From an archaeon (GTDB taxonomy: Archaea > Iainarchaeota > Iainarchaeia > Iainarchaeales > CSSED10-239): a stretch of 22,195 bases of DNA. The stretch lies in NCBI GenBank assembly GCA_035387745.1, contig DAOOON010000010.1:2157-24351 (forward strand). The letters run 5' to 3'. This document shows positions 2 to 17,608 of the stretch, in pieces. The first letter of the stretch is position 1, and each line of letters opens with the position of its first letter. The notes beneath the pieces were generated by a model that saw nothing but the letters and a program-made list of their open reading frames with translations, searched no databases and was not told the origin of the DNA. A program made the position numbers and the translations under genes.

Positions 2-3000
2 AATCCTCAGACCACTAGCGATAAAACAGAAAAACCAAAGAAAGGTTTCCCAAAAATTGCATTTATTCTTATTGCAGCAATTGTTTTGATAATAATCTTA
101 ATATTATTATTTAGTGGTGGCAAAAAAACACTAGGAGTATATGTAGTAGATGAGCAAAACTATTCGCTTGGTGGCGTAAATGTGTCATTAAACAACGAAA
201 TAACCCAAAGCACAGATGCTTTTGGTTACACAGAGTTCAAAGACCTAAAATTTAAAGATGTAGAAATAAAAGCCACAAAAGAAAGCTACACTACTCAAAC
301 AAAACAAATAAAACTAAATAAAAAACTACAAGAAGAAACTATAACTCTTAAAGTGGATACAACATCTGCGGAATTTAGAGGAATCACTTCTGAGAGACGC
401 AGAGAAATAATTTTTAAAAGCTACGATGTAGTTGTAACAGACAGTCTAAATGTTACTTTTAAATGTTCTAATTCTGAAAAGATTCCAGAACCAAGAGCAA
501 CAACAGTAACAAATGGAAGAACAAATGTATTACAACCTAGTAATTGTGGTTCTTTATTAGTAAGTGTAACGTCTTCAAACTATGAATTAATAACAGATAG
601 AAATATTAACGAAAATAACATAGTTGAACTAACTAGAGTAAATACAAATACTGGAATGTTAGAAGTTACAGTTAAAGACATTAGCGGGCAAGCAGTGCCT
701 TATACTAATCTAAGACTAAATAATATAGATGATTTACAAACTTCAACAAACGAATCAGACATAACGTTTAGCACAGGAATAACAGATATTTATGGGAAGT
801 ATAAGTTTAATGTGCCACAATCAAATTATCTTTTGTCAATAGATAAAACAGGATATATAAGCCTTCCAAAACTAGGACCATATAATATTATTAATAATAA
901 TCTAACAACAGCAAGTATTACTTTAATTACTGCTTCTGATTTAGCAAATCTTAATTGTTCAAACCCAATATATGCGCCATTTTGTAAAGATGGAGAAATT
1001 GATTGTAATAGCCAATTATTAACAGGTTTAGTTACTCCTAATCCAAACGGAACGGGCTGTACAATAGGGAGACTAACTAATTTAATTGTTAAACTAAAGG
1101 ATCAAAATACAAGTGCGCCAGTTACAGGAAATATTTCAGTTTATAGAAGAGACCAAAACGTTTTAAGTTTAATTACAACAAGAAGAGATGTAAATCAAAC
1201 AACTTTTGTTCTTAATGCAAGTAATCATTACAAAATACTTGTATCTAACACAGAGGATAATGGTTATTTACCACCAACACCAATAGATGTCAATAATCTT
1301 TCAGCAGATACAAACACAACTATAGAGATTCCTTTAGAATATCTCTCTTCATTAAATAGCGGAAGCATAAATGTTAATGTAACAAAAAACGGTTATAAAA
1401 GAGCAAATGCATTAGTTTATTTGTTTTATGAGTTAGATGACGAATATGTGTTATACAATCCAGAAAATCCAAAAAGCACAAATTCAAATGGAGATGCAAA
1501 TTTTGAATTTATAAGAAGTAACAGAGAATATTATGCTTATGCAATATTAAGAAACGAAAGTGCAGACGGGGACTCTCTACCAACACAAGAACTTGATAAT
1601 AATGATATTTTAGAATTAGAGGTGTCTTTAAGTAATCAATCAAAAACTCTTAATCTTAAAATAACCCCAAGTCAAGACTATAATATTTCTTTTTTTGAAG
1701 TTTCAGGAGAACAAATTCCAACAGAAAGCGTAGTTTCTACTAATGTTACAGGAGATACAAACAAAACCTTTGTTTTTAATTGTGGAGAAGAGTGTTCAAG
1801 AATATATTTGATTATTGAAAAAGGAGACACATTATATCAAACAGACCTGATATCGCTATTTCCTGGACAAGTTGCATACAAAGAAATAGCCTTCCCTACA
1901 ACGTTATCAGAAATTCAAACAACCACTTCCTTTTTAGGCCTTTATGATTCAACAGGCACAATAGAGATAGACAATTTAACTTTTTCAGGTGATAATGATC
2001 TAACAAAAGAATACAAAATTAAATTTAAAACTGTATTTGGTTCAGACAGAACAGATGTAATAAAGAAAGCATTTATTAAAGCAGGGAGATATCTAACAGA
2101 GAATGCGGATTTTATTTATTTAACAAATACTGACCTGTTTGTACCAGAAGACACAGATATAATCACTGGCTGTAGATATCATGGGGATTTAGAATCTTGG
2201 GATAGCAATTATTTTATTACAAACTTTGAATCAGATTATTCTTTTAACAACTGTACTGCAGGAAAATATAAGTGGCTAGAGTTTGATTTTAGTGATATTA
2301 ATGCAAACATTATAGAATATTCAGTAAATATTAAATTCAAAAACGAGATTACCACAATTGACAATTACAAAATCTATTACAGATCAATAAATTCAAATTT
2401 AGAAACCTTCTCCTTTTCTCCAAATCTTTCAAACTGGAACGACTGGTCAATAAGACCAGAAGGATATTTCTATGCGCCAACACAAGTAGAAGCAATGCCT
2501 TTTGATAATTCTAATTATTCGCACGTAGTTAAGTTATATGACCAAAATGGAGAACTAACTAAATTCGGTTCAGATTATATACTTTATATTGATAACGACT
2601 ACAATTATAGTTTAAGTTTCATACAGTTTTCCGATACCAATAGAACAGGAGACATAATTACAGATAGTCAAAACACAAACGAAAACTATGTTTTTACAAA
2701 TAGTTATTTTAAAGACAAAACTTCAACAAATCCAATTATACAAACAATAGACAATAATATTTCTTTTAATATTTCTTCAAAAACCACAAGCATCGGTTAT
2801 TGCTTTATTAATTATTTAATAGGCAAACCAATAGATTTCTTTTCATTAACCGGTCAGCCAGCACTAAGAACACAGTTATTTAAAAACAATAGCTCATCTT
2901 TAGCAACTGCTTTAACAAATGTGTTATCTTATTCAGAAAGCGCATATGTTCCAGTTGTTACTTCCAAAGCAACAGATAGAGAAATCTATGTTGGTTCTAA

Positions 3001-5908
3001 TGATCTTAATATAAGTTTAAAGAACAGTACAGGCAACTTTGAGAATAATGTCTTAGTGAAATATATAATCTCTGGTCAAACAATTGCTACAGATCTAGGA
3101 GAAATTACTAATAACATATTAAATACAGAAATATTTATTCCTTTAGAAGAGTCAGGAAAAACCATAACTTTTATTTTTACAATCCTTAATTCTAATCTTC
3201 CAAACAACGAATTAACCTTATCAAAAATTATAGGAACCGGCATAGAAATCTATGATCTTAATAATAATTTAATAACAAACAATAATAGATTAGGATATGA
3301 TATTCTTTTAACAAATATTTCTGGGGAGAAAAAAGCATCAGAATCAGTTAAAGACTATATTATAAAGAATAATATAAATAGAGAAGTAAAATTAGAAAAC
3401 GTTTCTATTTCTGATAGCGAGGCATTTTTAGAAGAAGAAATTAATCAAAATTTAATATCAGTTAATGAGTTACCAAAAGACTTAAACCAAAGTAATGTGA
3501 TTTCTGCAGGATTATTTATTGATTCAAATACAAATATTCAAGATATTAATTTTAATTACAATAATTTATTAACCATAAAAAATACAGGAGATATGCCAGA
3601 CATAACACTTTACAAAGACACAAACTCTTATGCAAGAATTAAAATATTAAATATTCAAGACTTTTCTAAGTTTACAACAACTAATGTTAATGGTTTTTAT
3701 GAAGATACAAACGGTTCAGGAATAGAGCTAATAAAAGATGTTATTAGTAATATTTCAATAAGTTATGATCTTAATCTATTATTTACAAGCCCTGTAAACT
3801 ATGATATTTTAGACACACAGATTGTTGGAGAAGACATCTCTAATTATATTAATTTTACTCAAGCACACACAAATAATTTATCTCAAAATAGATTGCTTGG
3901 AAATTTCAATTTTACATTTGTTCTAAAAAATATTAATTTTACAGAAATTATAGAAAAAGACGCAAATATAAACATAAAGATTGGTAATCAAACAGAAAAT
4001 TTTAGTTATGAGATTCCTATAAAAATAACACTATATCCAAAAAATAAAAGTTATAACTTAGCCTCTCAAGGTACACATCTAGCTATTGCTTGTAAAGAAG
4101 AAAACGATTGTAATTCTACGCTAGTCTATACTCTTAAAAACAACACAAGAAGTTATGATTTAAATTTAACAGGAATACAACTACAAGACTCTAATCCGCT
4201 TACTTATAATGTGGCATCGGAAATTCAAATTCCTATAAGTATAACTCAAAATGAGATTCCAATAATAATTGATGGAAACTATATCAATCTAAGAACAATC
4301 CCGGAGTTACATAAAATCTTTACTAAACAAATGAATTTTTCTCTAAATATTAATAATGTGCCAATCACAGAAACAAAACCACTAACCATAATTGTAACAT
4401 ATATTCCAGAAGATCCAGAAACAGAATTAAGTAACACAGGAATTACAAGTAATTTCTGTATGGGCGTAGGCGGACAAGCACAAGGTAGAGATTATGTAAT
4501 TTTAGGTATTTGTGATAACGGAGAGCAAGAGATGTGCAGTGTTGGAGAATCTGCTCTTCCAAAAGTATTATATCAATGGAGAGACCACACACAGAATTGG
4601 CAAACCCTTTGTATAGATAATCAAGAAGAATATGATACAAACAAAATACACTGTGATTCTGTACAAGCACTGTATTCAATATTTACATTAATTAGTTCTT
4701 CAGATTATGATGTAGACCAGAATTATTTTATTTATTTAATGTATGATGGAATAGAATCAGAAGATTTATTAGAGGATTTTAGAGAGCATTACAATCAATT
4801 CATTACGCACAATATTTCATCAATATTTTCAGAAAGATATTTAGATTTATATCACGATAATGAAATTACAATAACAAAAAGAACGCCGAACGATACGCCT
4901 ACAAAAGAAGTTGGAAAATATAAGATAGTGATTAATAATTTCGATTCTTTATTTACAAATAATCTTAATATCAACTTAGAATTAGTTCAGAATATCCCAT
5001 TAAATAAGAATAATCTATTCTATTATATACCAATAGATGGAGACTTTGGAGTAACAAATAATAAGGCACATAGAATTGGTTATGGTTCAACTATTGTTGG
5101 AGATTATGATTATTCAGATTTATTAGTAACTGAACCCTCTCCAACAAACATTAAATTATATGAGAAGCAAGAAAATTGTACCGATGATTGTTCAGGAGTA
5201 ACAAACATTACTGCAAGCTATCCAAATAACTATCTAGTAAATTGGCAAGTTGAAGATGTTTTAAAATCTAATGGCAATTTATTAGATTTAGCAGTAGACA
5301 ACACAACAGATTTTGAAAAGAAAAACATAGTATTTAATTTCACGCCTTCAAAACCAGTACAAGTGTTTGCAAGAGTAAATGGTATAAATAGTAAGAACTT
5401 TAACTATAAACTAATGATTAATGATCAATTCTCAGTAAGCACAGCAAATCTGATTAAGTGGAAAGAGTTTTCAGATTCCAATTACGATAATACTATAGAT
5501 GATGCATCAGTTTTTGGGCAACATGCAAACTATTTAAGACACGAGCTTACAAAAGAGAAATTCAAAAGCAAATTTGGAAATAATTTAGCCGCGAAATATT
5601 TGTTAGAATCAATGATTTATTTGCCAGTAAATATAGAATATTCTAATATTAAATTAACATTATTAGATTTAGATAATAATCTAGAATCTAAACTATATGG
5701 AATAAATAGTTTAGAGGGAACTACAGAATTAGCCATAACCTCTAAGGTTTCAGATATCTATTCAATAAATCAAATATTAAACCAAGTAAAAGACGGAAAT
5801 GCTTGTATCTCAAATACCTTGTCTAGTTCAAAAATTAAATGGGTTACAAAAAAGATTGAAATCCCACAAGGTTATAGATACCAAATAGAAAGCAATTATA
5901 ATAATTAA
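2..5908 (+). CDS. Giant membrane-anchored surface protein, paralog A (5'-partial, at least 1968 aa visible); multi CarboxypepD_reg-like beta-sandwich repeats plus a conserved Cys-rich C-terminal module
   Basis: The frame is open from nt 2 (NPQTTSDKTEKPKKGFPKIAFILIAAIVLIIILILLFSGG...). The TTG at 86 in the ORF track therefore sits inside a TM helix, and the real start is upstream of the window. The protein is collinear with the 2191-aa ORF at 10293..16868 along its whole length, for example KESYTTQTKQIKL vs KESYNTQTKELKL, PEGYFYAP vs PEGYFYSP, FIYLMYDG vs FIYLMSDG and YYIPIDGDFG vs YYLPIDGDLG. Repeated V.V.D..G.P..GA.V...TD..G.Y.F units resemble carboxypeptidase-regulatory-like domains. TAA stop at 5906-5908. 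Confidence 0.9.
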   Translation, partial: NPQTTSDKTEKPKKGFPKIAFILIAAIVLIIILILLFSGGKKTLGVYVVDEQNYSLGGVNVSLNNEITQSTDAFGYTEFKDLKFKDVEIKATKESYTTQTKQIKLNKKLQEETITLKVDTTSAEFRGITSERRREIIFKSYDVVVTDSLNVTFKCSNSEKIPEPRATTVTNGRTNVLQPSNCGSLLVSVTSSNYELITDRNINENNIVELTRVNTNTGMLEVTVKDISGQAVPYTNLRLNNIDDLQTSTNESDITFSTGITDIYGKYKFNVPQSNYLLSIDKTGYISLPKLGPYNIINNNLTTASITLITASDLANLNCSNPIYAPFCKDGEIDCNSQLLTGLVTPNPNGTGCTIGRLTNLIVKLKDQNTSAPVTGNISVYRRDQNVLSLITTRRDVNQTTFVLNASNHYKILVSNTEDNGYLPPTPIDVNNLSADTNTTIEIPLEYLSSLNSGSINVNVTKNGYKRANALVYLFYELDDEYVLYNPENPKSTNSNGDANFEFIRSNREYYAYAILRNESADGDSLPTQELDNNDILELEVSLSNQSKTLNLKITPSQDYNISFFEVSGEQIPTESVVSTNVTGDTNKTFVFNCGEECSRIYLIIEKGDTLYQTDLISLFPGQVAYKEIAFPTTLSEIQTTTSFLGLYDSTGTIEIDNLTFSGDNDLTKEYKIKFKTVFGSDRTDVIKKAFIKAGRYLTENADFIYLTNTDLFVPEDTDIITGCRYHGDLESWDSNYFITNFESDYSFNNCTAGKYKWLEFDFSDINANIIEYSVNIKFKNEITTIDNYKIYYRSINSNLETFSFSPNLSNWNDWSIRPEGYFYAPTQVEAMPFDNSNYSHVVKLYDQNGELTKFGSDYILYIDNDYNYSLSFIQFSDTNRTGDIITDSQNTNENYVFTNSYFKDKTSTNPIIQTIDNNISFNISSKTTSIGYCFINYLIGKPIDFFSLTGQPALRTQLFKNNSSSLATALTNVLSYSESAYVPVVTSKATDREIYVGSNDLNISLKNSTGNFENNVLVKYIISGQTIATDLGEITNNILNTEIFIPLEESGKTITFIFTILNSNLPNNELTLSKIIGTGIEIYDLNNNLITNNNRLGYDILLTNISGEKKASESVKDYIIKNNINREVKLENVSISDSEAFLEEEINQNLISVNELPKDLNQSNVISAGLFIDSNTNIQDINFNYNNLLTIKNTGDMPDITLYKDTNSYARIKILNIQDFSKFTTTNVNGFYEDTNGSGIELIKDVISNISISYDLNLLFTSPVNYDILDTQIVGEDISNYINFTQAHTNNLSQNRLLGNFNFTFVLKNINFTEIIEKDANINIKIGNQTENFSYEIPIKITLYPKNKSYNLASQGTHLAIACKEENDCNSTLVYTLKNNTRSYDLNLTGIQLQDSNPLTYNVASEIQIPISITQNEIPIIIDGNYINLRTIPELHKIFTKQMNFSLNINNVPITETKPLTIIVTYIPEDPETELSNTGITSNFCMGVGGQAQGRDYVILGICDNGEQEMCSVGESALPKVLYQWRDHTQNWQTLCIDNQEEYDTNKIHCDSVQALYSIFTLISSSDYDVDQNYFIYLMYDGIESEDLLEDFREHYNQFITHNISSIFSERYLDLYHDNEITITKRTPNDTPTKEVGKYKIVINNFDSLFTNNLNINLELVQNIPLNKNNLFYYIPIDGDFGVTNNKAHRIGYGSTIVGDYDYSDLLVTEPSPTNIKLYEKQENCTDDCSGVTNITASYPNNYLVNWQVEDVLKSNGNLLDLAVDNTTDFEKKNIVFNFTPSKPVQVFARVNGINSKNFNYKLMINDQFSVSTANLIKWKEFSDSNYDNTIDDASVFGQHANYLRHELTKEKFKSKFGNNLAAKYLLESMIYLPVNIEYSNIKLTLLDLDNNLESKLYGINSLEGTTELAITSKVSDIYSINQILNQVKDGNACISNTLSSSKIKWVTKKIEIPQGYRYQIESNYNN

Positions 5909-5942: not shown

Positions 5943-6479
5943 ATGAAAAAAGAAAAACTTACATTATTTATCTGGGGATTTATTATTTTCTTTTTAGGCC
6001 TTATTTTTGCTTTATCTTTTGTGCATACAACAACCAGCATATCAAGACAAAATCAAGAATATCTAAATTATAAGCTGTATTCGGCAAGAGAATTAAATCA
6101 TTTTAGAAATGACTTTAATCAATCTGCAGAAGAATTAATATTTTTTAGAGTTTCAACATATCCAAAAACAACAAAAAGCCAGATCTTTGCTTTTAAAAAA
6201 GAAGATTTTCAAAAATATACTGAAAAATTAAGTTTGCAGTCAGTAAATGGAGATCTTTTTATTGTGATTTCAAAAAACAGTTTAGAAGATAAAATAAAGA
6301 TTAAAGATCAAATAACCGATATTGAAATTCCGCTTATAGAATATTTAAAGACTGGTGCAAATTATACTGGTGGAAATATTACTACTAATTTTTGTCCATG
6401 TTTTGAATTTAGTTCAAAAGCCATTTATCATCTTTATGACTGTAAAGACTGGGGCTGTAGATTAAGCATAATTAAATGA
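5943..6479 (+). CDS. Hypothetical N-terminally membrane-anchored or secreted protein (178 aa), Cys-containing C-terminus
   Basis: ATG lies 34 nt after the giant gene and is preceded by GAGAAGG. The N-terminus MKKEKLTLFIWGFIIFFLGLIFALSF is basic then hydrophobic (signal anchor). The C-terminus has CPC...C...C. No family recognised. Confidence 0.7.
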   Translation: MKKEKLTLFIWGFIIFFLGLIFALSFVHTTTSISRQNQEYLNYKLYSARELNHFRNDFNQSAEELIFFRVSTYPKTTKSQIFAFKKEDFQKYTEKLSLQSVNGDLFIVISKNSLEDKIKIKDQITDIEIPLIEYLKTGANYTGGNITTNFCPCFEFSSKAIYHLYDCKDWGCRLSIIK

Positions 6480-6654: not shown

Positions 6655-8034
6655 ATGTCAATTACAAATTGCAAAAACAGAGGATTATTATTAATAGTAG
6701 TAATAGTAATTGCAGTTTTCTTTGTAAACAATGTCTTTGCAATAAATCCAGAAATATTAGGATTAAAACAATCGCATCTTGAAAGTATAATCTGCAATTA
6801 CAGTTCTCAAACAAATAATTGTGTTCTTGAGGGCGGAGACTATAACATAACTGGAGAAATATCTCCTGAGACTTCGAATATAAATTTAGTAATTAATCAA
6901 GACACCAATTTTAATGTTTCTTGTGTAAGCTCAAATTCAGTAGATAATAATTGTTACATAATGGGAGACGAAAACAGAATAGACGTTGTTTTTTCTGATT
7001 TTAATTCTATTACTATCGATTCTAATGTTAAGATTAATATTAATAGAGAGCATCTAATAGACACAAAACTTGAATTTAAAAACCTTGATTTAATTATTAA
7101 TGGAAGATTAGATATAACCAAAGATAATAATGCTTGTTTAGGAGAGGCATATACTAACGGATATTTATACTCATATATCCCTAAAATAGAGGTTTTTTTT
7201 GATAAATTAGAGGTAGGTAATAACGGAATATTAAATACCCAAATTAAAAAAGATTATCAGGGATATGATGTTGGTTGTGGCAGTTATGATAGTTTAACTA
7301 ATCTGTTATCATCAATAGAGGATACCGATTGGCAAGCGGGAGAAGTAACTAATCTGTTTGTAGATAAGATTAGTTTTAATGATGTTATAAATAATGGCGT
7401 TATTAATTTAAACTGCCAAACAAAAGTGGATAATACAATATATAAATATGATAATTGTAATTTTTATTTTAATAATTTGGCAGTTAACTTGCCAAAAAAG
7501 GTAATTAATGCAAATAATTATGGCATATTATTTGTCTCGACTTGTGGGCCAATATATTTACCTGACAATGTAGATTATAATATTTGTAAATTAAATTATA
7601 TAAGACCAGATACAAATGTGATTGATTTAAATAATGCAAATACTGGTGTAGCAATAATAAATAAAGTAAACAAATTTTGTGTTAAAGGTAGTATCTCTGA
7701 TCAGATATCTGAATATCTTTTTACTAGCGATTCAAACATCGAATCAAGACCAGTAATCTTTGGGACAATTAATTCTGCAATTACCTCTCAACCACTTGAT
7801 GTTTCTTTAGCCTCTGATAATAATTCAGGACTATATAATACAAAAAATATAAATCAAAGAATTTCTCCAATATCCCAAACAGAAAATATTTTCTTTAAGT
7901 TGTTTTTACCAAACAACTATTCAACAGATACAAATCTATTAGATTCATATCTATTTAGATTTAAATTAAATAGTAATTCACAAGTTGGCTATCCAGAAAT
8001 TGGACTAGATTATCCATTTAAAATACACAAATAA
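6655..8034 (+). CDS. Secreted beta-solenoid-like protein (459 aa), glycine-poor paralog of the 745-aa protein
   Basis: Sec-type signal peptide MSITNCKNRGLLLIVVIVIAVFFVNNVFA|IN. Motifs shared with the next gene: FNDVINNGVINLN vs LYNFINGVININ, LNYIRPD vs INYLRPG, and C-terminal YLFRFKLNSNSQ vs YLLRFRLQSQAD. Asn/Ile-rich repeats of the xNIxIx type. Confidence 0.85.
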   Translation: MSITNCKNRGLLLIVVIVIAVFFVNNVFAINPEILGLKQSHLESIICNYSSQTNNCVLEGGDYNITGEISPETSNINLVINQDTNFNVSCVSSNSVDNNCYIMGDENRIDVVFSDFNSITIDSNVKININREHLIDTKLEFKNLDLIINGRLDITKDNNACLGEAYTNGYLYSYIPKIEVFFDKLEVGNNGILNTQIKKDYQGYDVGCGSYDSLTNLLSSIEDTDWQAGEVTNLFVDKISFNDVINNGVINLNCQTKVDNTIYKYDNCNFYFNNLAVNLPKKVINANNYGILFVSTCGPIYLPDNVDYNICKLNYIRPDTNVIDLNNANTGVAIINKVNKFCVKGSISDQISEYLFTSDSNIESRPVIFGTINSAITSQPLDVSLASDNNSGLYNTKNINQRISPISQTENIFFKLFLPNNYSTDTNLLDSYLFRFKLNSNSQVGYPEIGLDYPFKIHK

Positions 8035-8048
8035 TAGAAAGATAAAAA

Positions 8049-10286
8049 ATGTTAAAAATAAAAGCAATATCCAAAGTTTTAATGGTTTTAATATTTATAC
8101 AACTAGTGATTGTTTCAGTTTATGCAGAAAACTGTTTTAATCCAGTAACTGGAATTAGCCAAGATGTTTCTGACGATAATAGTTCAGAATATATTTTAAA
8201 ATTTAATTTTACTAACGAAAGTATAAATCAAAACTTTAATTTTGTTAGAAATTCAAATAATTCTTTAATCTGTAATAATAAAAGATTTGTGTTAGTAATA
8301 GATGATAACGAGAGCTTTAAAATTACTGGAACAAACAAAGAAATAAAGATAAGCGGAGCAATAGACGAAGTAAGATTTGATTCTAATTCTCAAAATCCAA
8401 TAACTTTAACTTTCTTAGTCGATAATAATGAATCACAATTAGTTGGAGATAATACTCCTGGCGTTTTTAATATTGATGTAAATGAAACAAGAGTATTAAC
8501 AAACACAAAAATAGTAATTACCGAAGGAGAACGCGATTTCATAGAAAGTAATGGAAACGCAAGTAGCCCAAATAGAGTGGGTCGTGGGGTAAGACTTAAT
8601 TTAAGAAATTTAATTGTAGAAAATAACGCAGACTTAAACATTTCTTTGCAGGCCATAACTCCAAATTCCGGAGGAACATACGGAACATATGAATATAATA
8701 ATAATATTTTTAGTACTCAACACGGAATGCACGGTGGCACAGCATTATTTGTAGCAGAAAATATATTAAATAATGGGAAATTAAATATTGATATTTTTTC
8801 AGCACCCGGTTCAAAAGGGAGAGTAATTGGAGATGATGATATTTTAAATATATTAGGCGCAAACGGCGGAGATGGCGGTAGAGCTACATTTTATGTAAAT
8901 AATATTTATAATTATAAAGATTTAAATATAAATGTGAGATCCGGTAATGGCGCAGATGGGTCAAATGGAACAGATGAGGGTAGTTTAGGTGGCGGGTTGC
9001 CAATGGATGGTGGCGTGGCCGGTTTTGGCGGCCAGAGTGATTTATATATTAATGATAATTTATATAATTTCATAAATGGAGTAATCAATATTAATGTACT
9101 TTCAGGATCTGGCGGTAATGGAGGAAATGCTGGAAGAAATACATTCTGGTCAGATAATGCTAATGGCGGTAATGGTGGCTTTGGCGGATTTGTTTTTTTT
9201 AATTATGGGACGGGATATAATATTAATATACACAATCAAGGACAATTAAATTATAATGTGATTACAGGAGATAGCGGATTTGGTGGAACTAAAACCAAAT
9301 CTGGAAGAAAAGGATCTAGCGGAGCTGGTGGAGATATCTTTGATTTTAATGTTTCTAGATTTGTTAATACTGGAGATTTTAACTATTATGCTTTAGGCGG
9401 GAAAGTAAATATTAATAATGATTACATAGGAACAGGAAGAGCAGGAAATATTGGCTCAATAAATATTGAAAACTTAAATAATTTTTCTCAAAACTTTAAC
9501 ATAAATATTGAATTAAATGAAAAAAATATAGAAAATATAAGTAGTATTACTTGCGCTTGTCAAGAAAATTGTTCAATAGTAGGAGATCCTAAAATTGGAA
9601 ATATCAATATTAATTATCTAAGACCAGGAAGTTTCTTACCAAGATCTTTAAAAATAATAAAACAAGTACCTATAAATGACACAACAATAAATATATCTGG
9701 CTGTTATGTTCTATCATCAGGGAATTCAAGTATATCATACGCTGCAGATAATTTAATATTAAAATTGTCAAATCTTGCTGATATACAATATGATTTTGAT
9801 GAATCAGAAAATATGACCGCAAATAATATCTTTGAAAAGATAGTTTGCCCAGTCTGTGACAGCCTTGAGCTTAATAACTTTGCATTGAGAACAGACATAG
9901 AATATACAATTTATACTGATCAAGGTACTGAAAATATTACAGACTTAAATATTTATTATGTTAATCCAGACGGTAGTTTGTTTAAACCACCAGGATATCC
10001 AAGTAATAAAGATTATGTTATTTATAGTCTAAAGACCGGAGAAACAATAACTCCAAAACAAAACCAATTTATAGGAACAAATATAAAAGAATACAAGATA
10101 GCAAAAGAAAAATTACATTATAATTCAGAAAACTTTGATTTAACAAATATTCCTATAAAGAAAGGATACGATACACAAGATGTAAGACTATTCTGCCAAG
10201 CACAAAGATATTTATTAAGATTTAGATTACAAAGTCAGGCAGATATAAAAGAAATATACTTTACACCATTATTTGATATTAAATGA
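8049..10286 (+). CDS. Secreted glycine-rich repeat protein (745 aa), Pmp/adhesin-like beta-solenoid
   Basis: Signal peptide MLKIKAISKVLMVLIFIQLVIVSVYA|EN, starting 14 nt after the previous gene. The centre holds about 6 repeats, each pairing a Gly-rich loop with a hydrophobic beta segment. Examples: GGDGGRATFYVNN..LNINVRSG, GGFGGQSDLYINDN..ININVLSG, GGNGGFGGFVFFNYG, GGAGGDIFDFNVS. The GG(A/x)/FxxN pattern is reminiscent of polymorphic-outer-membrane-protein-type repeats. Confidence 0.88.
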   Translation: MLKIKAISKVLMVLIFIQLVIVSVYAENCFNPVTGISQDVSDDNSSEYILKFNFTNESINQNFNFVRNSNNSLICNNKRFVLVIDDNESFKITGTNKEIKISGAIDEVRFDSNSQNPITLTFLVDNNESQLVGDNTPGVFNIDVNETRVLTNTKIVITEGERDFIESNGNASSPNRVGRGVRLNLRNLIVENNADLNISLQAITPNSGGTYGTYEYNNNIFSTQHGMHGGTALFVAENILNNGKLNIDIFSAPGSKGRVIGDDDILNILGANGGDGGRATFYVNNIYNYKDLNINVRSGNGADGSNGTDEGSLGGGLPMDGGVAGFGGQSDLYINDNLYNFINGVININVLSGSGGNGGNAGRNTFWSDNANGGNGGFGGFVFFNYGTGYNINIHNQGQLNYNVITGDSGFGGTKTKSGRKGSSGAGGDIFDFNVSRFVNTGDFNYYALGGKVNINNDYIGTGRAGNIGSINIENLNNFSQNFNINIELNEKNIENISSITCACQENCSIVGDPKIGNININYLRPGSFLPRSLKIIKQVPINDTTINISGCYVLSSGNSSISYAADNLILKLSNLADIQYDFDESENMTANNIFEKIVCPVCDSLELNNFALRTDIEYTIYTDQGTENITDLNIYYVNPDGSLFKPPGYPSNKDYVIYSLKTGETITPKQNQFIGTNIKEYKIAKEKLHYNSENFDLTNIPIKKGYDTQDVRLFCQAQRYLLRFRLQSQADIKEIYFTPLFDIK
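8575..9515 (+). repeat. Intragenic degenerate tandem repeat region (about 40-50 aa units) encoding Gly-rich loops; local GC spike
   Basis: GGY-codon clusters such as ggcggagatggcggt, ggtggcgtggccggttttggcggc, ggcggtaatggaggaaat and ggcggtaatggtggctttggcgg. The 11-mer ggcggtaatgg occurs at 9111-9121 and 9165-9175. Confidence 0.7.
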
Positions 10287-10292
10287 TAGATT

Positions 10293-13200
10293 ATGAATGA
10301 AAAAGAAGAACAAGTAGAGAAAGTCTACAATATGCTTAAAGGCAAAGAAAATCGATTTTCAAAAGATGAACTAGAAAGATTAATAGTCTTTGATGGCTAT
10401 GATAAAGATATCGCTAAAAGAGTAGTTAAAAAATTATATGATAATAAACCAAAAGAAGAAAAGCCAATAACAACAACGCCACAAGAAAAAGAAAAGATTC
10501 TAGCGGAGATTTCTAAATCTTTAAAGGGCGGTTCAGAAGAGAAGCCACCACTTGTGGCGCCAAAAAAAGACAACAAACGCATATTTTCAATAATAGGAAA
10601 TTTCTTTAAGAAGATATATTTCTTTTTTGAAGATATTTATTATTCAATGATTGATGGCATAAATAAATTTATACCGATAAGTAAACTAGTGGATGGAATA
10701 GACAAGGTATTTCCCAGTTTTATTTTATTTTTAATATTTATTATTGCTATAATTTGGTTAATATTTTTTTCTGGAGTTTTTGGCGGTCTACTGGGCTCTC
10801 CAGTATTAGAAATTACTGTAACAGACAGTTTAGATATGCCAATTTCGGGAGCTACAGCAATATTATCAATTGGGGACCTTAATAAAACCTCCCAAACAGA
10901 TGTTTTTGGAGAAACTATCTTTCAAGACTTTGGTAAGAAAAAGGACGTTAAATTAATTATACAAAAAGAATCATACAATACACAAACAAAAGAACTAAAA
11001 CTTAAAAATGGAAATAATTCCGTAGTAGTAAAATTAGATATAGATACAACTACACAATTACATCTACTAGCAGCAAGAACCAGAAATTTAGTTTTTAAAG
11101 AAAATGATATACTATTGGCTACAAGACCTATCTTAGTAAATTTACGCTGTGCAAATTCCGGTACAATTCCTGAACCAAACTCTACAAGCATAAATTCTGG
11201 CCAATTACCTGTTAATATTCCAACCGGTTGCGGAGATTTAAGAGTAGATGTTTCTTCTGAATATTATAATTCTATTCAGAATACATTGGTTCCAGAAAAT
11301 AATGTAATTATGTTAACCCCAATAGCACAAAACTACGGCACTTTAGAAATAACAGTAAGAGATCAAAATACACAAGCAGCAATTTCAGATGTGTTTTTAC
11401 AATTATATAAACCGGACGACCCAACAACACAGATTAATGAATCAAATCTAGTGGTTTCTTCAGGAACTACAACAGTTTATGGTACTTATGTATTTACTAA
11501 TTTAACGCCAGGGGCATATACGGTTTCTGCAAACAAGAGTGGGTACACCTCATCTTTAAATAGAGTTGGGCCATACCAAATATCGATTAATAATAACACG
11601 ATTGGAAACATAATATTATCAACTGGTGGGAAAACATTAAATGTAGTTTTAGTTGATATAAATGGAAATACGGAAAGAGAGATAAAAGGAGATATCACAG
11701 TTTATACAAAAAGAACAGATACTAATGTAGTTACAGCAATAGGCACAAGAGAAGACACAAATAGAGCAACATTTTCTTTACCAGTAAACTCTAGCGGAGT
11801 AACTTATAAATTAGCAGTACAAAATACTGAAAATTCAGGTTATTATGCTCCAGACATAATGGATTTAAATTATTTTGATAATAATACAACAATAACAATT
11901 CAATTAGAATATTCTTCAGCATTAAATACTGGAAAAATAGGAGTTAATGTTTCTAGAAGTACATACAAAGTAGTTGGAGCGAGCGTATATATTTTTAGAG
12001 AAAATCACGACGATATACCTATTGCAGGTCCGCATATCACAAATAATAGTGGCGATTGTAATTTCTCACTTATTAGATCGGGAAGGAAATATTTTGCTTA
12101 TGTTATTAAAAGTCCAGAACAAGGTGTATCTGAGGTTAAAAAATTAGATGCTAATGATTATATGGAACTAAATGTTGAATTAGAAGATCAAGCAACGATA
12201 TTAAATCTTAAAGTGATGCCCACAATTGATTATAATATTTTATTTTTTAAATCAAATGGCGATGAGGTTACTGAATTTGTAGTTACAAACACCTCTCAAG
12301 ATTCAAACAAAGAATATATTTTTAGAGATTCGGCATATAATATGTATGCAATAATTAGTGCAAACGGTAAAGCAACATATCAAACTAGTTTAATAACATT
12401 AATTCCTGGACAAAGAATTTATCGTTCAGTCTCTCTATCAAACACAAGAACCGAAGCATTTTCAAATATTGAATTATTAGGCATATATGATGAAAGTGGA
12501 AATATTGATAAAAATATAATTAATCTTGCAACAGATTATTCAAAGACCTTTAAATTAAAATTTAAATTAACAACAATAAATCAAGAGAATAGAGATAAAT
12601 CTTATGCTTATATTAGGGCAGGTAAAAGAGTGGCTTTACCATCAGATTATTTAAGATTAGAAAACGTAATAGCATTTGAAACCGAAAACGAATATGGTTG
12701 TAATTTCTCTGGAGAAACAACAGACTGGAATCAAGTTCATTTCTTAGCATATGACGATATTGATCATTCTCAAGCAAATTGTTCAGCATCACCTTCTGGC
12801 TTTAAGTGGGTAAAGATTGACTTTTCTGATTCTGACGCAGAACAGATAGAATTCTTCGTAGATTTTAAATTTCAAAATGGCATAACTAATTTATCAGATT
12901 ATATAATTTATTATAAAAGCTTAACTGAAACAGAAGACGAAGAATATAAATTAAGTCCTAATTTAAGTAATTCTTGGCAAGAATGCGATATGATTCCTGA
13001 AGGATATTTTTATAGTCCATATTACAATAGAGCACTAACATTTGATAATTCAGATTATGCATTCTTATATGATATTTATGATTACAATTCAGCAACAAAC
13101 ACAATTGGTCAAAGATTATCTCTACTTGGTAGCAAATACATTTTAGAAATAGGTAATAACTACAATTATGCTCAAAAAATGCTATATCTAAAGAATAGCT

Positions 13201-16200
13201 CAGCAAATGGATCTATATTGGCTACATCTTATAATACTTATAATCATTTACTATACAACGCATATAAATTAAAGATAAGAAATCAGTCTAGCAACACTCA
13301 AACAGATATTAATGTAACAGGAATTAATGTAGTGAATTATACAATATTCGATATAGATGCAAGTCTTGCAACTCAAATAGACCACAATTCTGTATTTACC
13401 CCAATCGATTTCTTTATTAATTATTCTACTGGCGGATCTAATCAAAATAGTAATTCTATTAATCAAAACAATAATTCTAATCAAGGAAATATTGCCGGAA
13501 TGGCAAGTGCCACATTAAACCCACAAGAAAATGGCACAAATTATGATTTAAATACTGATTCTAATTTAGCTACAAACTTATTAAATATCTCTGGATTAAA
13601 TCCTTATTCTGTTCCAGTTTTAGCATATTATCCTGCAGATGCCAATGTAATTATAGAAATTATTACTGGAGATGCAACAGGAAATAATGACATATATGCG
13701 GGAGATAATAATATTAGTTTTAGAGTTAGAAATATTTCTGGTAGTCCAATATCAGGAGTAAGAATATCGTCAACAGTTTATTCTCCACAAGCAATAATAT
13801 TTGGTACAACAAACTCTAATGGCCTACTATCAAATAAAAATTTGTCTTTACCACTATCAAAATTAGGGAGCAGCATTAATTTTAGTTTTTTGTTTCCTGC
13901 AAATTTTGGATTTTCGAATAATACTGTAGTAATATCTAAACAAATAAAATCAAGCTATAGATTATTCTTAGAAGATGGAACTGAAATTTCTCAAGGTAAC
14001 GCCATACAATACAATGTCGGGAGATATATGAATAATGGGCAATTGAAATTTACAAAAGCAGAAAAAAATTATTATATAAAAGGGACAAACCAAGTTTCCG
14101 GTAGGCTTATTGCAGCAGATCCATATCCTAATCCAACGCAATATTTAGATTTCCAGGATATAAATAATTATATTTATACAGAAAATAATGTTCCCTTATA
14201 TTTATCAGATTTAAATAAAGAAATAAAAACGAGAATTTCAATATTGAATTTTCCAAATTTAGATGACAACACAAATCCACTACAAGATCCAAAAGGACAA
14301 TCCCAAAACAATACAATACAAAATAAATTAGAAAATGCAGAGTATACTTCTGTAACTGGGGGCTATCATAACATAATTAATGCAGGAAATTATAATAATC
14401 TGCCAATAAGATTAGATCTTAATGCTCCTTTTAATACTAATCTATTCTTTAATCTAAATTTAGAAACCTCATTTGTGGGTTTACCAAAACCAGGAGTTAA
14501 AGAATCAACAGAAGGCGCTTATGATTTAATTATAGAACTAATAAAAAACAGACATTCAAATATTAACTTCAATATGGCAATAGCAAATGGTTCAGATAAT
14601 AGATTATTGGTTGATGCAATTCCAGTTATTGATTCATCATTAAATGGTTATATAACTGTGACAACAAATGATATAAATATTCCGTCAAGATCAGGAAATC
14701 AATTATCTATAGCAATTGATTTAAATAATAGTAAAATAATAACTTCTGATTTAAGAAATAAGCCATTAATTATTAATCTAAACTATACAATAAATGGCGT
14801 AACTTTTACAGAGCCAATTTCAATTAAGATTAATGTTTATGATAGTAATGATGCGTTTGTTATTAATCAACCAACCATAAAAACAATGGATTGTACAGCT
14901 AATGATTGTAATACAGAGATAGTAGTTTCTGCAACAAACAAAACTAGAACTTATGATTTTAATTTAAGTAGTATTAATGTATTGCAACCAGATAATAATC
15001 TTTCAATAACTGTTTCTCCACCACTGCCACCAATAATTATAAATTCACAACAGACAGATAATATAAAAGAGATAACATTAAAAGTATCTGGAAATTATAA
15101 TCTATTAAAAGGAAACACTAGTGGTTCAGAATATATGAGAGTAATACAAGAAGAAATAACTAAAACTATAAAATATAATTATAAGATAATTGGTTCAATG
15201 GAAGTTGGATTAACAAACCAAAATTTTGATATAAATAAAAATACAAATTTTAAGATATCTATTTGGTTACAAAACATTCAAGAATTATTAAGAGAAAACG
15301 GATTATACGGAAATATTTGTCTGGGTGTTGGCGGCATAAATATTAATCAACCAACAGGATTCTATATATTAGGTAATTGTGATACCGAAGGACAAAATGA
15401 TTGTAAGAACGGAGCAGACGCTAAACCAAAAATAATATATGATTGGTCAGACCAAACAGATTGGAAAACAGAATGTATAGAAAACACCAGCGAGGATTAC
15501 AATGAGCAAAAGACACATTGTGATTCTTTACAGATGTTATTTAGCGTATTTAAGTTAATTGAAAATAGTACGAGCAATGATATAAGTGGCAATAAATTCA
15601 TTTATCTAATGAGTGACGGAGTAACAAAAGATCTATTATCTGACTTTGTAAATAATACTGAATTTATGTATTCCGCATCTACAAATTGGGACAATCAGGA
15701 TTTACTATCTGATGCAAATATTGATGCTAATAGATTTAGTATATCAAAAACAGAAATAGATAGTGCAGGTAATGAAATAACTACTCTCAAACCAGGGAAA
15801 TATAAAATAACAATAGAAAATTTTATAAAAGGTCAACCAAAGCCGCTACACATAAAACTGGAACTAGTAAGAGAAATGCCATATACAATGAGAAATTTAT
15901 TATACTATTTACCAATAGATGGAGATTTAGGAATTATTGGTAATAATGAACAAAATAAAAGATCAGCAAGAGATGGTTATGGTTCTTCTTTAACACAAAG
16001 TTCAAAAAAAGGTTTGCCTGTTGAGATAGGGACGGGTGCCAGCCAAAAAGAATATTATATTTATCCAATAGTTAATGATGAAAATAAAAGTAGAGCAATT
16101 ATAAATTTACAAAATGACTCAAATAATTTCAAAAATACATTAAGATCTGAAGGTAAATTATTAGACCTGGCTCTTACAAATATAGATTCGAGTGATCAAT

Positions 16201-16868
16201 CCTTTAATATTAATATGACCTATTCTCCAAGCTATCCAATACCGCTTTATGCGAAAGTAGTAAATAGTGATGTTTCTGGTTTAAGTTATAAATTAAAGAA
16301 AGATGAAATAAATGATGTTGCAATAAATTTTACTAATTTCCTAGTGTGGCAAGATTATAGTAATGAAAATAGGATTTTATCAGATGGGCAATATTATAGT
16401 GGTGTAGGAGTTTATTATAAATCGATGATTGATGGTTTGAAATTTAAATCAGTTTATGGCGAAAATAATCAGATTAAATTATTAAAAACAATGATGTATT
16501 GGCCAATGAATTATTATGCGGGGGATATTCCAAATATAAATTTAGTATTAAGCGATAATGGTTCAAATTGTTGTGGCAACAATCCTGAATCAAAAATATA
16601 TTCTTTAGTAAATTTAAATGGTTCTTCAACTAATGTAGGAAACATAAAAAACATAACAAGAGCGAATTCAACCCTTGGGACAGTAGATTTAAAAGATCTT
16701 TTAGATTATATAGATAATAATGCATGTATTAGAAGTGGACTTACAGTTACAACAATAAAATGGATAGATGAAAATGTGGGCTTTACACCAGAACAAGCAA
16801 ACCAAATAATTGAAAATTCAGGGGTGTCTGGTATTAATGATAATCCCACAAACGAAATAATTAATTAA
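10293..16868 (+). CDS. Giant membrane-anchored surface protein, paralog B (2191 aa): cytoplasmic N-terminal ~140 aa, one TM helix, then extracellular beta-sandwich repeats and the conserved Cys-rich module
   Basis: ATG lies 6 nt after the TGA-TAG stop of the previous gene. The N-terminus is charged (MNEKEEQVEKVYNMLKGKENRF...KPKEEKP...) and is followed by the TM helix FPSFILFLIFIIAIIWLIFFSGVFGG. It is collinear with paralog A and has a unique N/Q/S-rich linker (GGSNQNSNSINQNNNSNQGNIAG). Confidence 0.92.
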   Translation: MNEKEEQVEKVYNMLKGKENRFSKDELERLIVFDGYDKDIAKRVVKKLYDNKPKEEKPITTTPQEKEKILAEISKSLKGGSEEKPPLVAPKKDNKRIFSIIGNFFKKIYFFFEDIYYSMIDGINKFIPISKLVDGIDKVFPSFILFLIFIIAIIWLIFFSGVFGGLLGSPVLEITVTDSLDMPISGATAILSIGDLNKTSQTDVFGETIFQDFGKKKDVKLIIQKESYNTQTKELKLKNGNNSVVVKLDIDTTTQLHLLAARTRNLVFKENDILLATRPILVNLRCANSGTIPEPNSTSINSGQLPVNIPTGCGDLRVDVSSEYYNSIQNTLVPENNVIMLTPIAQNYGTLEITVRDQNTQAAISDVFLQLYKPDDPTTQINESNLVVSSGTTTVYGTYVFTNLTPGAYTVSANKSGYTSSLNRVGPYQISINNNTIGNIILSTGGKTLNVVLVDINGNTEREIKGDITVYTKRTDTNVVTAIGTREDTNRATFSLPVNSSGVTYKLAVQNTENSGYYAPDIMDLNYFDNNTTITIQLEYSSALNTGKIGVNVSRSTYKVVGASVYIFRENHDDIPIAGPHITNNSGDCNFSLIRSGRKYFAYVIKSPEQGVSEVKKLDANDYMELNVELEDQATILNLKVMPTIDYNILFFKSNGDEVTEFVVTNTSQDSNKEYIFRDSAYNMYAIISANGKATYQTSLITLIPGQRIYRSVSLSNTRTEAFSNIELLGIYDESGNIDKNIINLATDYSKTFKLKFKLTTINQENRDKSYAYIRAGKRVALPSDYLRLENVIAFETENEYGCNFSGETTDWNQVHFLAYDDIDHSQANCSASPSGFKWVKIDFSDSDAEQIEFFVDFKFQNGITNLSDYIIYYKSLTETEDEEYKLSPNLSNSWQECDMIPEGYFYSPYYNRALTFDNSDYAFLYDIYDYNSATNTIGQRLSLLGSKYILEIGNNYNYAQKMLYLKNSSANGSILATSYNTYNHLLYNAYKLKIRNQSSNTQTDINVTGINVVNYTIFDIDASLATQIDHNSVFTPIDFFINYSTGGSNQNSNSINQNNNSNQGNIAGMASATLNPQENGTNYDLNTDSNLATNLLNISGLNPYSVPVLAYYPADANVIIEIITGDATGNNDIYAGDNNISFRVRNISGSPISGVRISSTVYSPQAIIFGTTNSNGLLSNKNLSLPLSKLGSSINFSFLFPANFGFSNNTVVISKQIKSSYRLFLEDGTEISQGNAIQYNVGRYMNNGQLKFTKAEKNYYIKGTNQVSGRLIAADPYPNPTQYLDFQDINNYIYTENNVPLYLSDLNKEIKTRISILNFPNLDDNTNPLQDPKGQSQNNTIQNKLENAEYTSVTGGYHNIINAGNYNNLPIRLDLNAPFNTNLFFNLNLETSFVGLPKPGVKESTEGAYDLIIELIKNRHSNINFNMAIANGSDNRLLVDAIPVIDSSLNGYITVTTNDINIPSRSGNQLSIAIDLNNSKIITSDLRNKPLIINLNYTINGVTFTEPISIKINVYDSNDAFVINQPTIKTMDCTANDCNTEIVVSATNKTRTYDFNLSSINVLQPDNNLSITVSPPLPPIIINSQQTDNIKEITLKVSGNYNLLKGNTSGSEYMRVIQEEITKTIKYNYKIIGSMEVGLTNQNFDINKNTNFKISIWLQNIQELLRENGLYGNICLGVGGININQPTGFYILGNCDTEGQNDCKNGADAKPKIIYDWSDQTDWKTECIENTSEDYNEQKTHCDSLQMLFSVFKLIENSTSNDISGNKFIYLMSDGVTKDLLSDFVNNTEFMYSASTNWDNQDLLSDANIDANRFSISKTEIDSAGNEITTLKPGKYKITIENFIKGQPKPLHIKLELVREMPYTMRNLLYYLPIDGDLGIIGNNEQNKRSARDGYGSSLTQSSKKGLPVEIGTGASQKEYYIYPIVNDENKSRAIINLQNDSNNFKNTLRSEGKLLDLALTNIDSSDQSFNINMTYSPSYPIPLYAKVVNSDVSGLSYKLKKDEINDVAINFTNFLVWQDYSNENRILSDGQYYSGVGVYYKSMIDGLKFKSVYGENNQIKLLKTMMYWPMNYYAGDIPNINLVLSDNGSNCCGNNPESKIYSLVNLNGSSTNVGNIKNITRANSTLGTVDLKDLLDYIDNNACIRSGLTVTTIKWIDENVGFTPEQANQIIENSGVSGINDNPTNEIIN

Positions 16869-16880
16869 GGCAGAATAAAA

Positions 16881-17264
16881 ATGGATTTAACAATATTAGG
16901 TTTTTTAAATGATATGTCGTTTTTACTAAAGCTGGCATTTATAGTATTTATAATTTTATTTGTAAAAGAGAGAATAACTAAAAACTGGCTTGCAATTACA
17001 GCAATTGTTATTGTTTGTATTGTCTTAATATTTTTCTACTGGCCAGTATTTGGGTCGATATATGTTGTATATATATTAATTACAATAGGTATTGGCTCAG
17101 TTCTTGTTGACACTTTCTTTGTAACAATGCAGGAAGGTGCCCCAAAACATAAAGGCGAAGGGCCAAGTCCTCAACAAATGCTTGGGGAGCAGGAACAAGG
17201 ATATGATATGGAACAAACTTTTGCTGCTAGGCAACAGGTAATGAATAGGATGGGTAGAAGATAA
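16881..17264 (+). CDS. Small polytopic membrane protein (127 aa, about 3 TM helices plus a hydrophilic Q/G-rich tail)
   Basis: Starts 12 nt after the giant gene stop. Hydrophobic segments: LLKLAFIVFIILFV, WLAITAIVIVCIVLIFFYW, IYVVYILITIGIGSVLV. No family recognised. Confidence 0.75.
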   Translation: MDLTILGFLNDMSFLLKLAFIVFIILFVKERITKNWLAITAIVIVCIVLIFFYWPVFGSIYVVYILITIGIGSVLVDTFFVTMQEGAPKHKGEGPSPQQMLGEQEQGYDMEQTFAARQQVMNRMGRR

Positions 17265-17608
17265 TGAATGCAAAAGGATTTCTAAATTTCATTCCGTTTT
17301 TAAAAAACGCATCACTAATTTGGAAGATATTAATTGTAATTTTATTAGTTATATTTACTGTGCCACTTGCAGTTTATGCAGTTCCTATACTTAAATATGT
17401 TATAATGATAATTATCGCATTTGTAGTTTACGGAATGGTTGCGCCAGCATTTGGTAATAGCCTATTAACCTTTATAGTTCTAGGGATAATGCTATATTTT
17501 ATATTTAAATATTTTTATGTTGCTACCGGGGCATTTTTATTATATTTCTTTTTAGTTTATGGATTTATGTCAGTACTTATCTGGGGTACTGCAAGGTTTG
17601 GGAGATAA
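17264..17608 (+). CDS. Small polytopic membrane protein (114 aa, about 4 TM helices)
   Basis: The ATG overlaps the upstream TAA (TAATG), which indicates translational coupling. The protein is almost entirely hydrophobic. No family recognised. Confidence 0.75.
   Translation: MNAKGFLNFIPFLKNASLIWKILIVILLVIFTVPLAVYAVPILKYVIMIIIAFVVYGMVAPAFGNSLLTFIVLGIMLYFIFKYFYVATGAFLLYFFLVYGFMSVLIWGTARFGR

Follow-up and report, generated by a model that had tools for sequence, protein, structure and literature searches.

What are the cysteine-rich segments that recur toward the ends of two giant proteins encoded in one gene cluster of a tiny archaeon, where do they begin and end, and what might they do? The window analyzed here, a 22,195-nucleotide (nt) stretch of DNA from an archaeon of the Iainarchaeota (G000:C10:2157-24351; source genome of 807 kb in 67 contigs, 82% complete, ~29% G+C), encodes two paralogous giants, giant 1 (P0001) and giant 2 (P0002), each of which carries a stretch with five cysteines (Cys). 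An earlier reading of the DNA, here termed the sequence-only reading, had singled out this stretch as a five-Cys module of no known family, as the most conserved part of the giants, and as a possible core for binding, catalysis, or assembly. We found that the five-Cys stretch is a real and unrecognized element that had been drawn with the wrong borders and given the wrong superlative: it is the N-terminal part of a C-terminal head of ~480 to 530 residues and not an autonomous module. The coordinates of all features are provided in Table 1.

Extent of the five-Cys stretch and of the C-terminal head

The two copies of the stretch are homologous, with 94/231 identities (41%; E = 4e-49) and all five Cys paired. 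The five Cys were invariant or nearly so in 17/17 close family members, as were the motifs HCDSxQ, IYLMxDG, YYxPIDGxxG, and RxGYG, which bears out the proposed conservation of the five Cys. An alignment (A2) of P0002 amino acids (aa) 1640 to 2191 with 12 relatives from the fetched loci was then used as a profile against 1.84 billion representative proteins, and it matched 446 protein clusters at E ≤ 1e-3 and 339 at E ≤ 1e-10. The head match was located at the C-terminal end of the protein in almost all matches, and most of the head-bearing proteins among the matches listed had lengths of 2000 to 3200 aa, with shorter proteins or fragments from contigs making up the remainder. Most matches begin at the IYLMxDG strand and cover only profile positions ~128 to 520, up to the end, and the Cys-rich positions 30 to 125 align in ~20 to 45% of them; in giant 2, the part of the head conserved throughout the phylum starts at nt 15597. 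The idea that the five-Cys stretch is the signature of the family was ruled out, since the match of distant members to the close-family profile begins only at IYLMxDG.

The same borders emerged from structure prediction. A first AlphaFold2 (AF2) run of the head with 13 sequences was weak, with a predicted local distance difference test (pLDDT) value of 63 and an uninformative Foldseek run, and it was redone with 49 sequences from the fetched loci (alignment A4). The resulting model of the 552-residue P0002 head has a pLDDT of 81.2 and a predicted template modeling score (pTM) of 0.80; residues 64 to 542 (P0002 aa 1703 to 2181) are mostly confident, apart from a three-residue dip at 451 to 453, and the last ten residues are poorly defined. 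The pTM value indicates that AF2 sees one compact body and not a 220-residue module plus a separate part. In order, the model contains loops with Cys 3 to 5, a helix directly after the HCDS Cys (about residues 104 to 119), the IYLM strand, several short helices, a beta sheet with PGKY, the YYxPxDG and RxGYG loops, and a beta-rich half. Copy 1 corresponds to the Cys-rich lobe and the first alpha/beta part of the head. Since both the profile match and the confident model continue to the C terminus, the view of the stretch as a self-contained module had to be abandoned.

The proposal that this stretch is the most conserved part of the giants stood in one comparison and failed in the others. Between giant 1 and giant 2, the best 100-column window, at 48% identity vs 35% overall, does lie in the five-Cys stretch, although narrowly, given blocks of 46% at P0001 aa ~386 to 510 and 44% at aa ~755 to 855. 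Across relatives the picture differed. (i) In 11 nonredundant family members, the mean BLOSUM62 score was 3.18 in the best block, at P0002 aa ~790 to 900, vs 2.49 in the five-Cys stretch. (ii) In orthologs of giant 2, the five-Cys windows ranked at the 30th to 85th percentile of conservation, and the top windows were found at aa 101 to 900. (iii) Among the distant full-length relatives retrieved in a single-sequence search, 76 to 100% aligned to P0002 at aa 100 to 800, 12 to 47% in the five-Cys region, and about 1 to 8% at aa ~950 to 1650. Across relatives, the conservation of the stretch is thus no higher than that of the rest of the protein, and the superlative does not hold. Taken together, this regional profile indicates that the giants are conserved in two parts, the membrane-proximal third and an island at the C terminus, on either side of a highly variable middle. 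The best-conserved block in the close family (P0001 aa ~723 to 827, window positions 2168 to 2480; P0002 aa ~790 to 900, window positions 12650 to 13000) holds a conserved Cys pair and reads GC..Y.G...W...NC...KW..DFSD...IE..V..KF.N.IT...Y.IYY.S...PNLSN.W...PEGYFY.P.

The head has no counterpart in the databases searched, in agreement with the description of the stretch as unrecognized. A Pfam scan of 13 head sequences at E ≤ 10 gave no useful match and only stray single rows (DUF7909, 0.054; COMM, 0.15), there was no NCBIfam match, and the head profile had 0 matches at E ≤ 10 among 177,635 Protein Data Bank (PDB) sequences. Foldseek searches with the pLDDT 81 model returned nothing significant from the PDB (best E 0.11, probability ≤ 0.16, template modeling score ≤ 0.2) or from BFVD (best E 0.025 at a probability of 0.05). 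Weak rows to concanavalin-like or glycoside hydrolase family 16 (GH16) sandwiches were recurrent (calreticulin, GH16, ConM, and TSPN; E 0.2 to 1.5, template modeling score < 0.2), and a resemblance of the model to these folds may be taken as a lead only.

Distribution of the head

Among the phylum's 215 genomes, 188 contain the head, usually with several matches each, and the share for high-quality genomes is 55 of 58; no head match was obtained in two families that belong to a different order of the same class. The genome of the window contains at least three head copies, the third being partial and located on contig C53. The closest named relatives of the giants come from metagenome-assembled genomes (MAGs) labeled "archaeon," and the more distant ones from MAGs of Candidatus Diapherotrites, Iainarchaeum, and Micrarchaeota.

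Several observations concern the setting in which the head occurs. In close relatives, four head-bearing paralogs of about 2180, 1985, 2500, and 980 aa form one tandem array, as at G037:C2:168546-200793, and similar arrays are present in G036, G041, G027, G031, and G033. The head-bearing form of ~980 aa recurs in many genomes, so the head is also found on a much shorter protein. Proteins P0058/P0168 (2584 aa, from a Micrarchaeota MAG) and P0089 (2823 aa) contain 70 to 80 Cys each; in P0058, ~70 of them follow the head match, which points to a Cys-rich C-terminal extension behind the head.

Cysteine pattern of the head

The five Cys have a likely sixth partner far downstream. A Cys at profile position 492, in the C-terminal core, is present in 166/167 sequences and corresponds to Cys 2145 in P0002 and Cys 1935 in P0001. 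Seventeen of the 49 sequences aligned in A4, every one of them with the five-Cys pattern, have exactly six Cys in the head, namely, these five and the one at position 492. We counted Cys in the 78 full-length members in which the landmarks could be placed. The Cys-rich segment holds an odd number in 71/78 (5 in 42 members, 7 in 20, 3 in 7, and 9 in 2), the C-terminal core holds an odd number in 76/78 (3 in 54, 1 in 12, and other values in the remainder), and their sum is even in 71/78; for whole proteins, the count is even in 84/105. With both parts odd and their sum even, the simplest reading is that all Cys are paired and that one disulfide joins the Cys-rich lobe to the C-terminal core. Probably, then, one of the five Cys bonds to the near-invariant Cys ~400 residues downstream, and a lobe-core staple of this kind would be present in every lineage, whatever the local Cys layout. 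Since the relatives are not independent of one another, the parity constitutes strong circumstantial evidence and is not to be read as a probability. The putative disulfides are derived from Cys counts across the family and not from coordinates.

The local layout does vary. In distant relatives, the Cys-rich segment reads C.QG...ALP.IKL.W.W...CD...YCDATQF-helix-CP, followed by CW...YLxDG, and between CP and CW there is often an insert of ~110 to 150 residues, which we would guess to be immunoglobulin (Ig)-like. The clade of the window lacks the CP and CW cysteines as well as the insert; in their place it has Cys 2 and Cys 3 as a local pair with a spacing of seven residues. In A2, three Cys of ~2500-aa paralogs (L006 and L010) appeared to match Cys 1, 3, and 5; this match was discarded as spurious, since the three Cys belong to the insert-type layout.

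Architecture of the giants

The start of giant 1 was located 289 nt upstream of the window, in an open frame of ~2071 aa that contains a run of N. This assembly gap (L003, about 2060 to 2160) lies inside the 5' repeat region, and the exact protein length and the number of N-terminal repeats are consequently uncertain. Giant 1 has a single predicted transmembrane (TM) helix from nt 56, and the remainder is predicted to be extracellular; giant 2 has a cytoplasmic N terminus of ~140 aa and one TM helix from nt 10719, followed by the giant ectodomain. Whole-protein Pfam searches placed the CarboxypepD_reg, SpaA, and SdrD_B beta-sandwich matches of both giants near the start of the ectodomain only, and CarboxypepD_reg was above its cutoff in both giants as well as in distant members. 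The Ig-like and transthyretin-like Pfam matches come after the N-terminal TM helix, beyond which N-glycosylation sequons are frequent. Judged from this topology and from the sequons, the giants are extracellular beyond the TM helix, and with an N-terminal TM anchor followed by Ig-like and transthyretin-like domains they conform to the general kind of giant beta-sandwich-repeat surface proteins. The number of sequons per 100 aa was 2.5 to 4.0 in the N-terminal and middle ectodomain, 1.5 to 2.7 in the rest of the head, and 0.9 to 1.3 in the five-Cys stretch; a sequon-poor stretch fits a buried or contact surface, the counts being small.

A cytoplasmic motif directly before the TM helix, YYxLEDKYYxxLDK...IPVYKxIDPIDKxxPSF, is common to the whole giant family. 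In P0002 it reads KIYFFFEDIYYSMIDGINKFIPISKLVDGIDKVFPSF (aa ~102 to 142; window positions 10596 to 10718), and it was also seen in the distant relatives P0051 to P0165. In its shorter form with the adjoining helix, YYxLEDKYY...IDPIDKxxPSF-TM, it is present in P0002 as KIYFFFEDIYYSMIDG...VDGIDKVFPSF and in distant members. The N terminus of P0001 is shorter and different, with a repeated NPQTTSDKTEKPKKG unit. The unnamed giant family may thus be described by three features, namely, the C-terminal head profile, the N-terminal motif, and a downstream gene of the 127-aa type considered below; all were found here, except for the motif at the P0001 N terminus. The giants take up a few percent of the 0.8-Mb genome.

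Small membrane proteins encoded behind the giants

The 127-aa protein encoded behind giant 2 is of a type found in 174/215 genomes and in 55/58 high-quality ones, with one match in nearly all carriers. Its gene lies ~30 to 500 nt downstream of the head match of a giant in 25 genomes of 14 families, as determined by comparing coordinates by eye; examples are G037, G014, G163, G010, G125, G189, G132, G176, G101, G159, G050, G057, G065, and G168. Even in loci with heads only 15 to 30% identical to those of the window, the giant is followed by homologs of both the 127-aa protein (phmmer, 1e-14 to 1e-22) and the 114-aa protein (1e-9 to 1e-17). The pair is conserved in loci L026 to L031, L042, L046, L047, and L056, and in several of the most distant loci it stands first in a series of four or five small TM proteins. 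These gene orders identify the 127-aa and 114-aa membrane proteins as conserved putative partners of the giants.

A co-occurrence of the head with the 745-aa type of protein was seen in part. In a single-sequence search, this type was present in 16/21 genomes of the window's own taxonomic family (f1) and in 0 elsewhere. Since the 745-aa type was detected only in this family and the head occurs in 188/215 genomes, this co-occurrence is local.

Possible function of the head

The explanation that we consider best, with a rough probability of 0.55, is that the head, stapled by a disulfide and without catalytic activity, serves for docking or assembly and forms the far end of a protein of the envelope. 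According to this explanation, the head would terminate a family of sequon-rich surface proteins of ~2000 to 3200 aa, each with one N-terminal anchor, in DPANN archaea of the Iainarchaeota/Diapherotrites type. The five-Cys stretch would comprise a small, disulfide-held Cys-rich lobe together with the first strand and helices of the core (IYLMxDG, PGKY, YYxPxDGxxG, and RxGYG), and the long-range disulfide would staple the lobe to the C-terminal beta-rich core, making the head one rigid body. If the protein is extended, the head would sit at the C-terminal, membrane-distal end of the ectodomain, atop a stalk of beta sandwiches, where it may provide a non-catalytic surface that binds either a glycan or another protein from its own envelope system. 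What the analysis shows is how the sequence is conserved, how far the family extends, that the head is modeled as a single unit, how many Cys each part holds, and how the genes are ordered; the disulfides, the far-end position, and the binding role are inferred. Only Tyr, Pro, Gly, and Arg residues are invariant across the 49 diverse sequences of A4, with Asp, Phe, Gly, Tyr, Pro, Trp, and Cys at the near-invariant positions; His, Ser, Glu, and Lys were not among the conserved residues of the head in these sequences. Conservation of the head throughout the phylum, next to a middle region that is free to vary, makes a partner produced by the cell itself more likely than a variable host surface. 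Candidate partners are the heads of neighboring molecules, another envelope protein, or a conserved glycan.

Several points weigh against this explanation. (i) Adhesin tips are normally variable, and a head conserved throughout the phylum is unusual for such a tip; this favors a self-encoded partner and singles out none. (ii) The binding role is the default reading of a domain that lacks a catalytic signature and not a positive finding. (iii) The disulfides are deduced from counts only, and the parity figures suggest more statistical support than there is, because the sequences are related and hence not independent. (iv) Many of the relatives were recovered from metagenomes, of activated sludge and other kinds, with unchecked oxygen status, and it is assumed that disulfides form outside the cell. 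(v) Confidence in the model is low for residues 1 to 62, to which the tail of the preceding domain, Cys 1, and Cys 2 belong.

A broader view, which we put forward tentatively and hold to be possible, though less likely than not, is that the head has a new fold and marks an undescribed, phylum-wide envelope apparatus in which tandem N-anchored giants and small polytopic membrane proteins act together, the stapled head being the outer docking element for a lattice or for cell-cell contact. Its boldest version would make the CDxxQ Cys a reactive warhead for covalent attachment.

It seems rather unlikely that the giants form the main cell coat in place of an S-layer, with the head as the lattice contact between neighbors. 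In line with such a role, nearly all genomes have giants, most often with several matches, and giants claim a few percent of a 0.8-Mb genome; they carry many sequons, an array of small membrane proteins is conserved alongside them, and PF05123 (S_layer_N) was not found in the genome of the window. However, that negative comes from an 82% complete genome and from one S-layer family, and the N-terminal anchor and the 2000-aa length are unlike those of known archaeal S-layer proteins. A coat would moreover be one form of assembly surface and so overlaps the docking or assembly explanation.

That the head is an extracellular enzyme, such as a glycan or peptide hydrolase or a transferase, we regard as improbable. 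Such activity would depend on the conserved Asp residues of IYLMxDG, DF, and PxDG, on the Arg of RxGYG, and on a Tyr cluster, and several acidic and aromatic residues are indeed invariant or nearly so across the 49 sequences; there are also weak Foldseek rows to concanavalin-like sandwiches and GH16 glucanases (3pos, 5ocr, 7kr6, 4tzd, and 2ouh). Those rows, however, have E ≥ 0.2, probability ≤ 0.07, and template modeling scores ≤ 0.2, the Pfam, NCBIfam, and PDB sequence searches were empty, and the head lacks a conserved Glu, His, Ser, or Lys and any conserved nucleophile pair. A Cys-His catalytic pair at HCDS was ruled out, since distant members have YCDATQ or VCDSTQ in place of this motif and do not keep the His; the catalytic role suggested by the sequence-only reading is therefore unsupported.

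An autonomous binding or catalytic module of ~220 residues that folds and functions alone is, in our judgment, quite improbable. The well-aligned block, its five invariant Cys, and its several invariant motifs agree with it, and no known family contradicts it. On the other hand, the end at RxGYGS is not a domain edge, as the profile and the model run on to the C terminus, most relatives match only from mid-block onward, and five is an odd number of Cys, as is the count in the downstream partner. Finally, there is very little chance that the CDxxQ Cys is not disulfide bonded but forms a Cys-Gln thioester or binds metal for the covalent attachment of a partner, as in complement, alpha-2-macroglobulin (A2M), and Gram-positive thioester adhesins: although C-D-[SAG]-x-Q, with both Cys and Gln kept, occurs in 55/86 distant members scanned with upstream sequence and in distant loci, lies at the start of a confident model helix, and belongs to a segment that is odd in Cys in 71/78 members, its spacing is i to i+4 instead of the i to i+3 of CGEQ/CLEQ, Foldseek gave no thioester-domain match, and the core is odd as well, with an even sum in 71/78, for which a disulfide is the simpler reading.

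Comparison with known surface proteins

In the way it works, the head resembles the domain that ends a giant Ig-repeat surface protein, and no named family tested fits it. There is a likeness to the giant Ig-like-repeat surface adhesins of bacteria and archaea, such as the pilins and adhesins of Gram-positive bacteria that carry prealbumin-like domains of the SpaA or SdrD-B type. They share with the giants the great extracellular length, transthyretin-like and Ig-like beta-sandwich domains (in the giants, Pfam matches to CarboxypepD_reg, SpaA, SdrD_B, and Big_1), and a distinct domain at the C-terminal end of the ectodomain. The giants differ from them in that they have a single N-terminal TM anchor after a conserved cytoplasmic motif and not a C-terminal sortase, PGF-CTERM, or TM anchor, and in that their end domain is conserved throughout the phylum, instead of being the variable part, and has no match to a solved adhesin tip. 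The SPEARE proteins of Nanohaloarchaeota, which are defined by serine-protease, adhesion, and restriction-endonuclease domains, resemble the giants in being giant surface-associated DPANN proteins thought to act at the cell surface, but these three kinds of domains were not found here by Pfam.

The A2M/complement thioester proteins, including membrane-anchored bacterial A2M, have in common with the giants an N-terminal membrane attachment, a string of beta sandwiches, and a Cys...Gln motif (here CDxxQ). Faint Pfam rows to MG3 and MG4 were obtained in the giants, either below the Pfam cutoff or overlapping CarboxypepD_reg. The giants differ in the motif spacing and in lacking an alpha/alpha-toroid thioester domain or a Foldseek match to one, and the Cys counts favor a disulfide; in place of the CGEQ of A2M/C3 or the Gram-positive thioester domain, we found the motif C-D-S-x-Q, and no thioester domain was among the Foldseek matches. 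Archaeal S-layer proteins provide a last comparison. That of Candidatus Micrarchaeum harzensis is a PF05123 protein of 101 kDa (doi 10.1101/2021.04.28.441871). Like the giants, it is a sequon-rich DPANN envelope protein conserved through its lineage, whereas the giants are at least twice its size, are anchored N-terminally, and usually give several matches per genome. PF05123 was absent from the Pfam matches of the giants and, as noted, from the 82% complete genome. In the literature searched on giant or large surface proteins of Iainarchaeota, Diapherotrites, and DPANN, there was no description of the giant family.

Gene cluster of the window

One cluster of co-directional genes fills ~80% of the window and runs in the order giant 1, 178-aa protein, 459-aa protein, 745-aa protein, giant 2, 127-aa protein, 114-aa protein, and tRNA-Arg, after which come the genes for HU, histidyl-tRNA synthetase, and Fic (Table 1). 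No Pfam or NCBIfam family was found for the 178-aa, 459-aa, 127-aa, and 114-aa proteins. The gene upstream of giant 1 (L003 1-1852; >616 aa, with Gly-rich GGxGG tracts) shows a weak paralogous relation to the 745-aa protein (E 2e-12), of which a weak second match lies at G000:C10:233-1807. The locus therefore looks like a duplicated pair in which a Gly-rich protein is followed by a giant. The HU gene (bacterial type, Bac_DNA_binding) and the Fic-domain gene are found at window positions 18086 to 18355 and 20447 to 21385, and together with the genes for histidyl-tRNA synthetase, alanyl-tRNA synthetase, and a phospholipase D-like protein they stand in a conserved order beside the surface cluster in all close relatives.

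Table 1. Features of the gene cluster and of the two heads, in window coordinates (nt)
Feature	Position	Strand	Remarks
Giant paralog 1 (P0001)	2..5908	+	5' end cut by window edge; Pfam CarboxypepD_reg at aa 45-109
C-terminal head of giant 1, whole	4364..5905	+	Unit used in alignments A2 and A4
Five-Cys stretch, copy 1	4451..5100	+	Cys codons at nt 4457, 4511, 4535, 4610, 4652
Motifs of copy 1	HCDSVQ 4649-4666; FIYLMYDG from 4727; YYIPIDGDFG 5021-5050; RIGYGS 5072-5089	+	
Candidate sixth Cys, giant 1	5804-5806	+	aa 1935, window numbering
178-aa protein	5943..6479	+	N-terminal hydrophobic helix; no family match
459-aa protein	6655..8034	+	Putative signal peptide (hydrophobic N-terminal stretch, by eye); no family match
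745-aa Gly-rich protein	8049..10286	+	GGxGG tracts; putative signal peptide (hydrophobic N-terminal stretch, by eye)
Giant paralog 2 (P0002)	10293..16868	+	2191 aa
C-terminal head of giant 2, whole	15210..16865	+	aa 1640-2191; sequence folded by AF2
Five-Cys stretch, copy 2	15312..15990	+	Cys codons at nt 15318, 15378, 15402, 15474, 15519
Motifs of copy 2	HCDSLQ 15516-15533; FIYLMSDG from 15597; YYLPIDGDLG 15903-15932; RDGYGS 15969-15986	+	
Candidate sixth Cys, giant 2	16725-16727	+	aa 2145
127-aa small polytopic membrane protein	16881..17264	+	Single-copy, nearly universal in phylum
114-aa small polytopic membrane protein	17264..17608	+	Start overlaps stop of 127-aa gene

Significance for the archaeal envelope

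To our knowledge, the cell surface of Iainarchaeota/Diapherotrites is uncharacterized. These tiny archaea, with genomes under 1 Mb, devote a few percent of the genome to giants that are annotated only as "hypothetical" or "carboxypeptidase regulatory-like." The giants are not a new kind of system, since giant surface proteins are already known as a kind. What is added here is (i) that they share a conserved head without a match to a solved fold, seemingly held by a long-range disulfide, and (ii) that they accompany a single-copy small membrane protein across the phylum. The result is a concrete, searchable family definition and a piece of ~500 residues suited to expression, structure work, and binding screens. 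If the head proves to be the surface by which the cell coat or a host-attachment structure makes contact, the way in which these archaea build their envelope or meet their partners would become testable.

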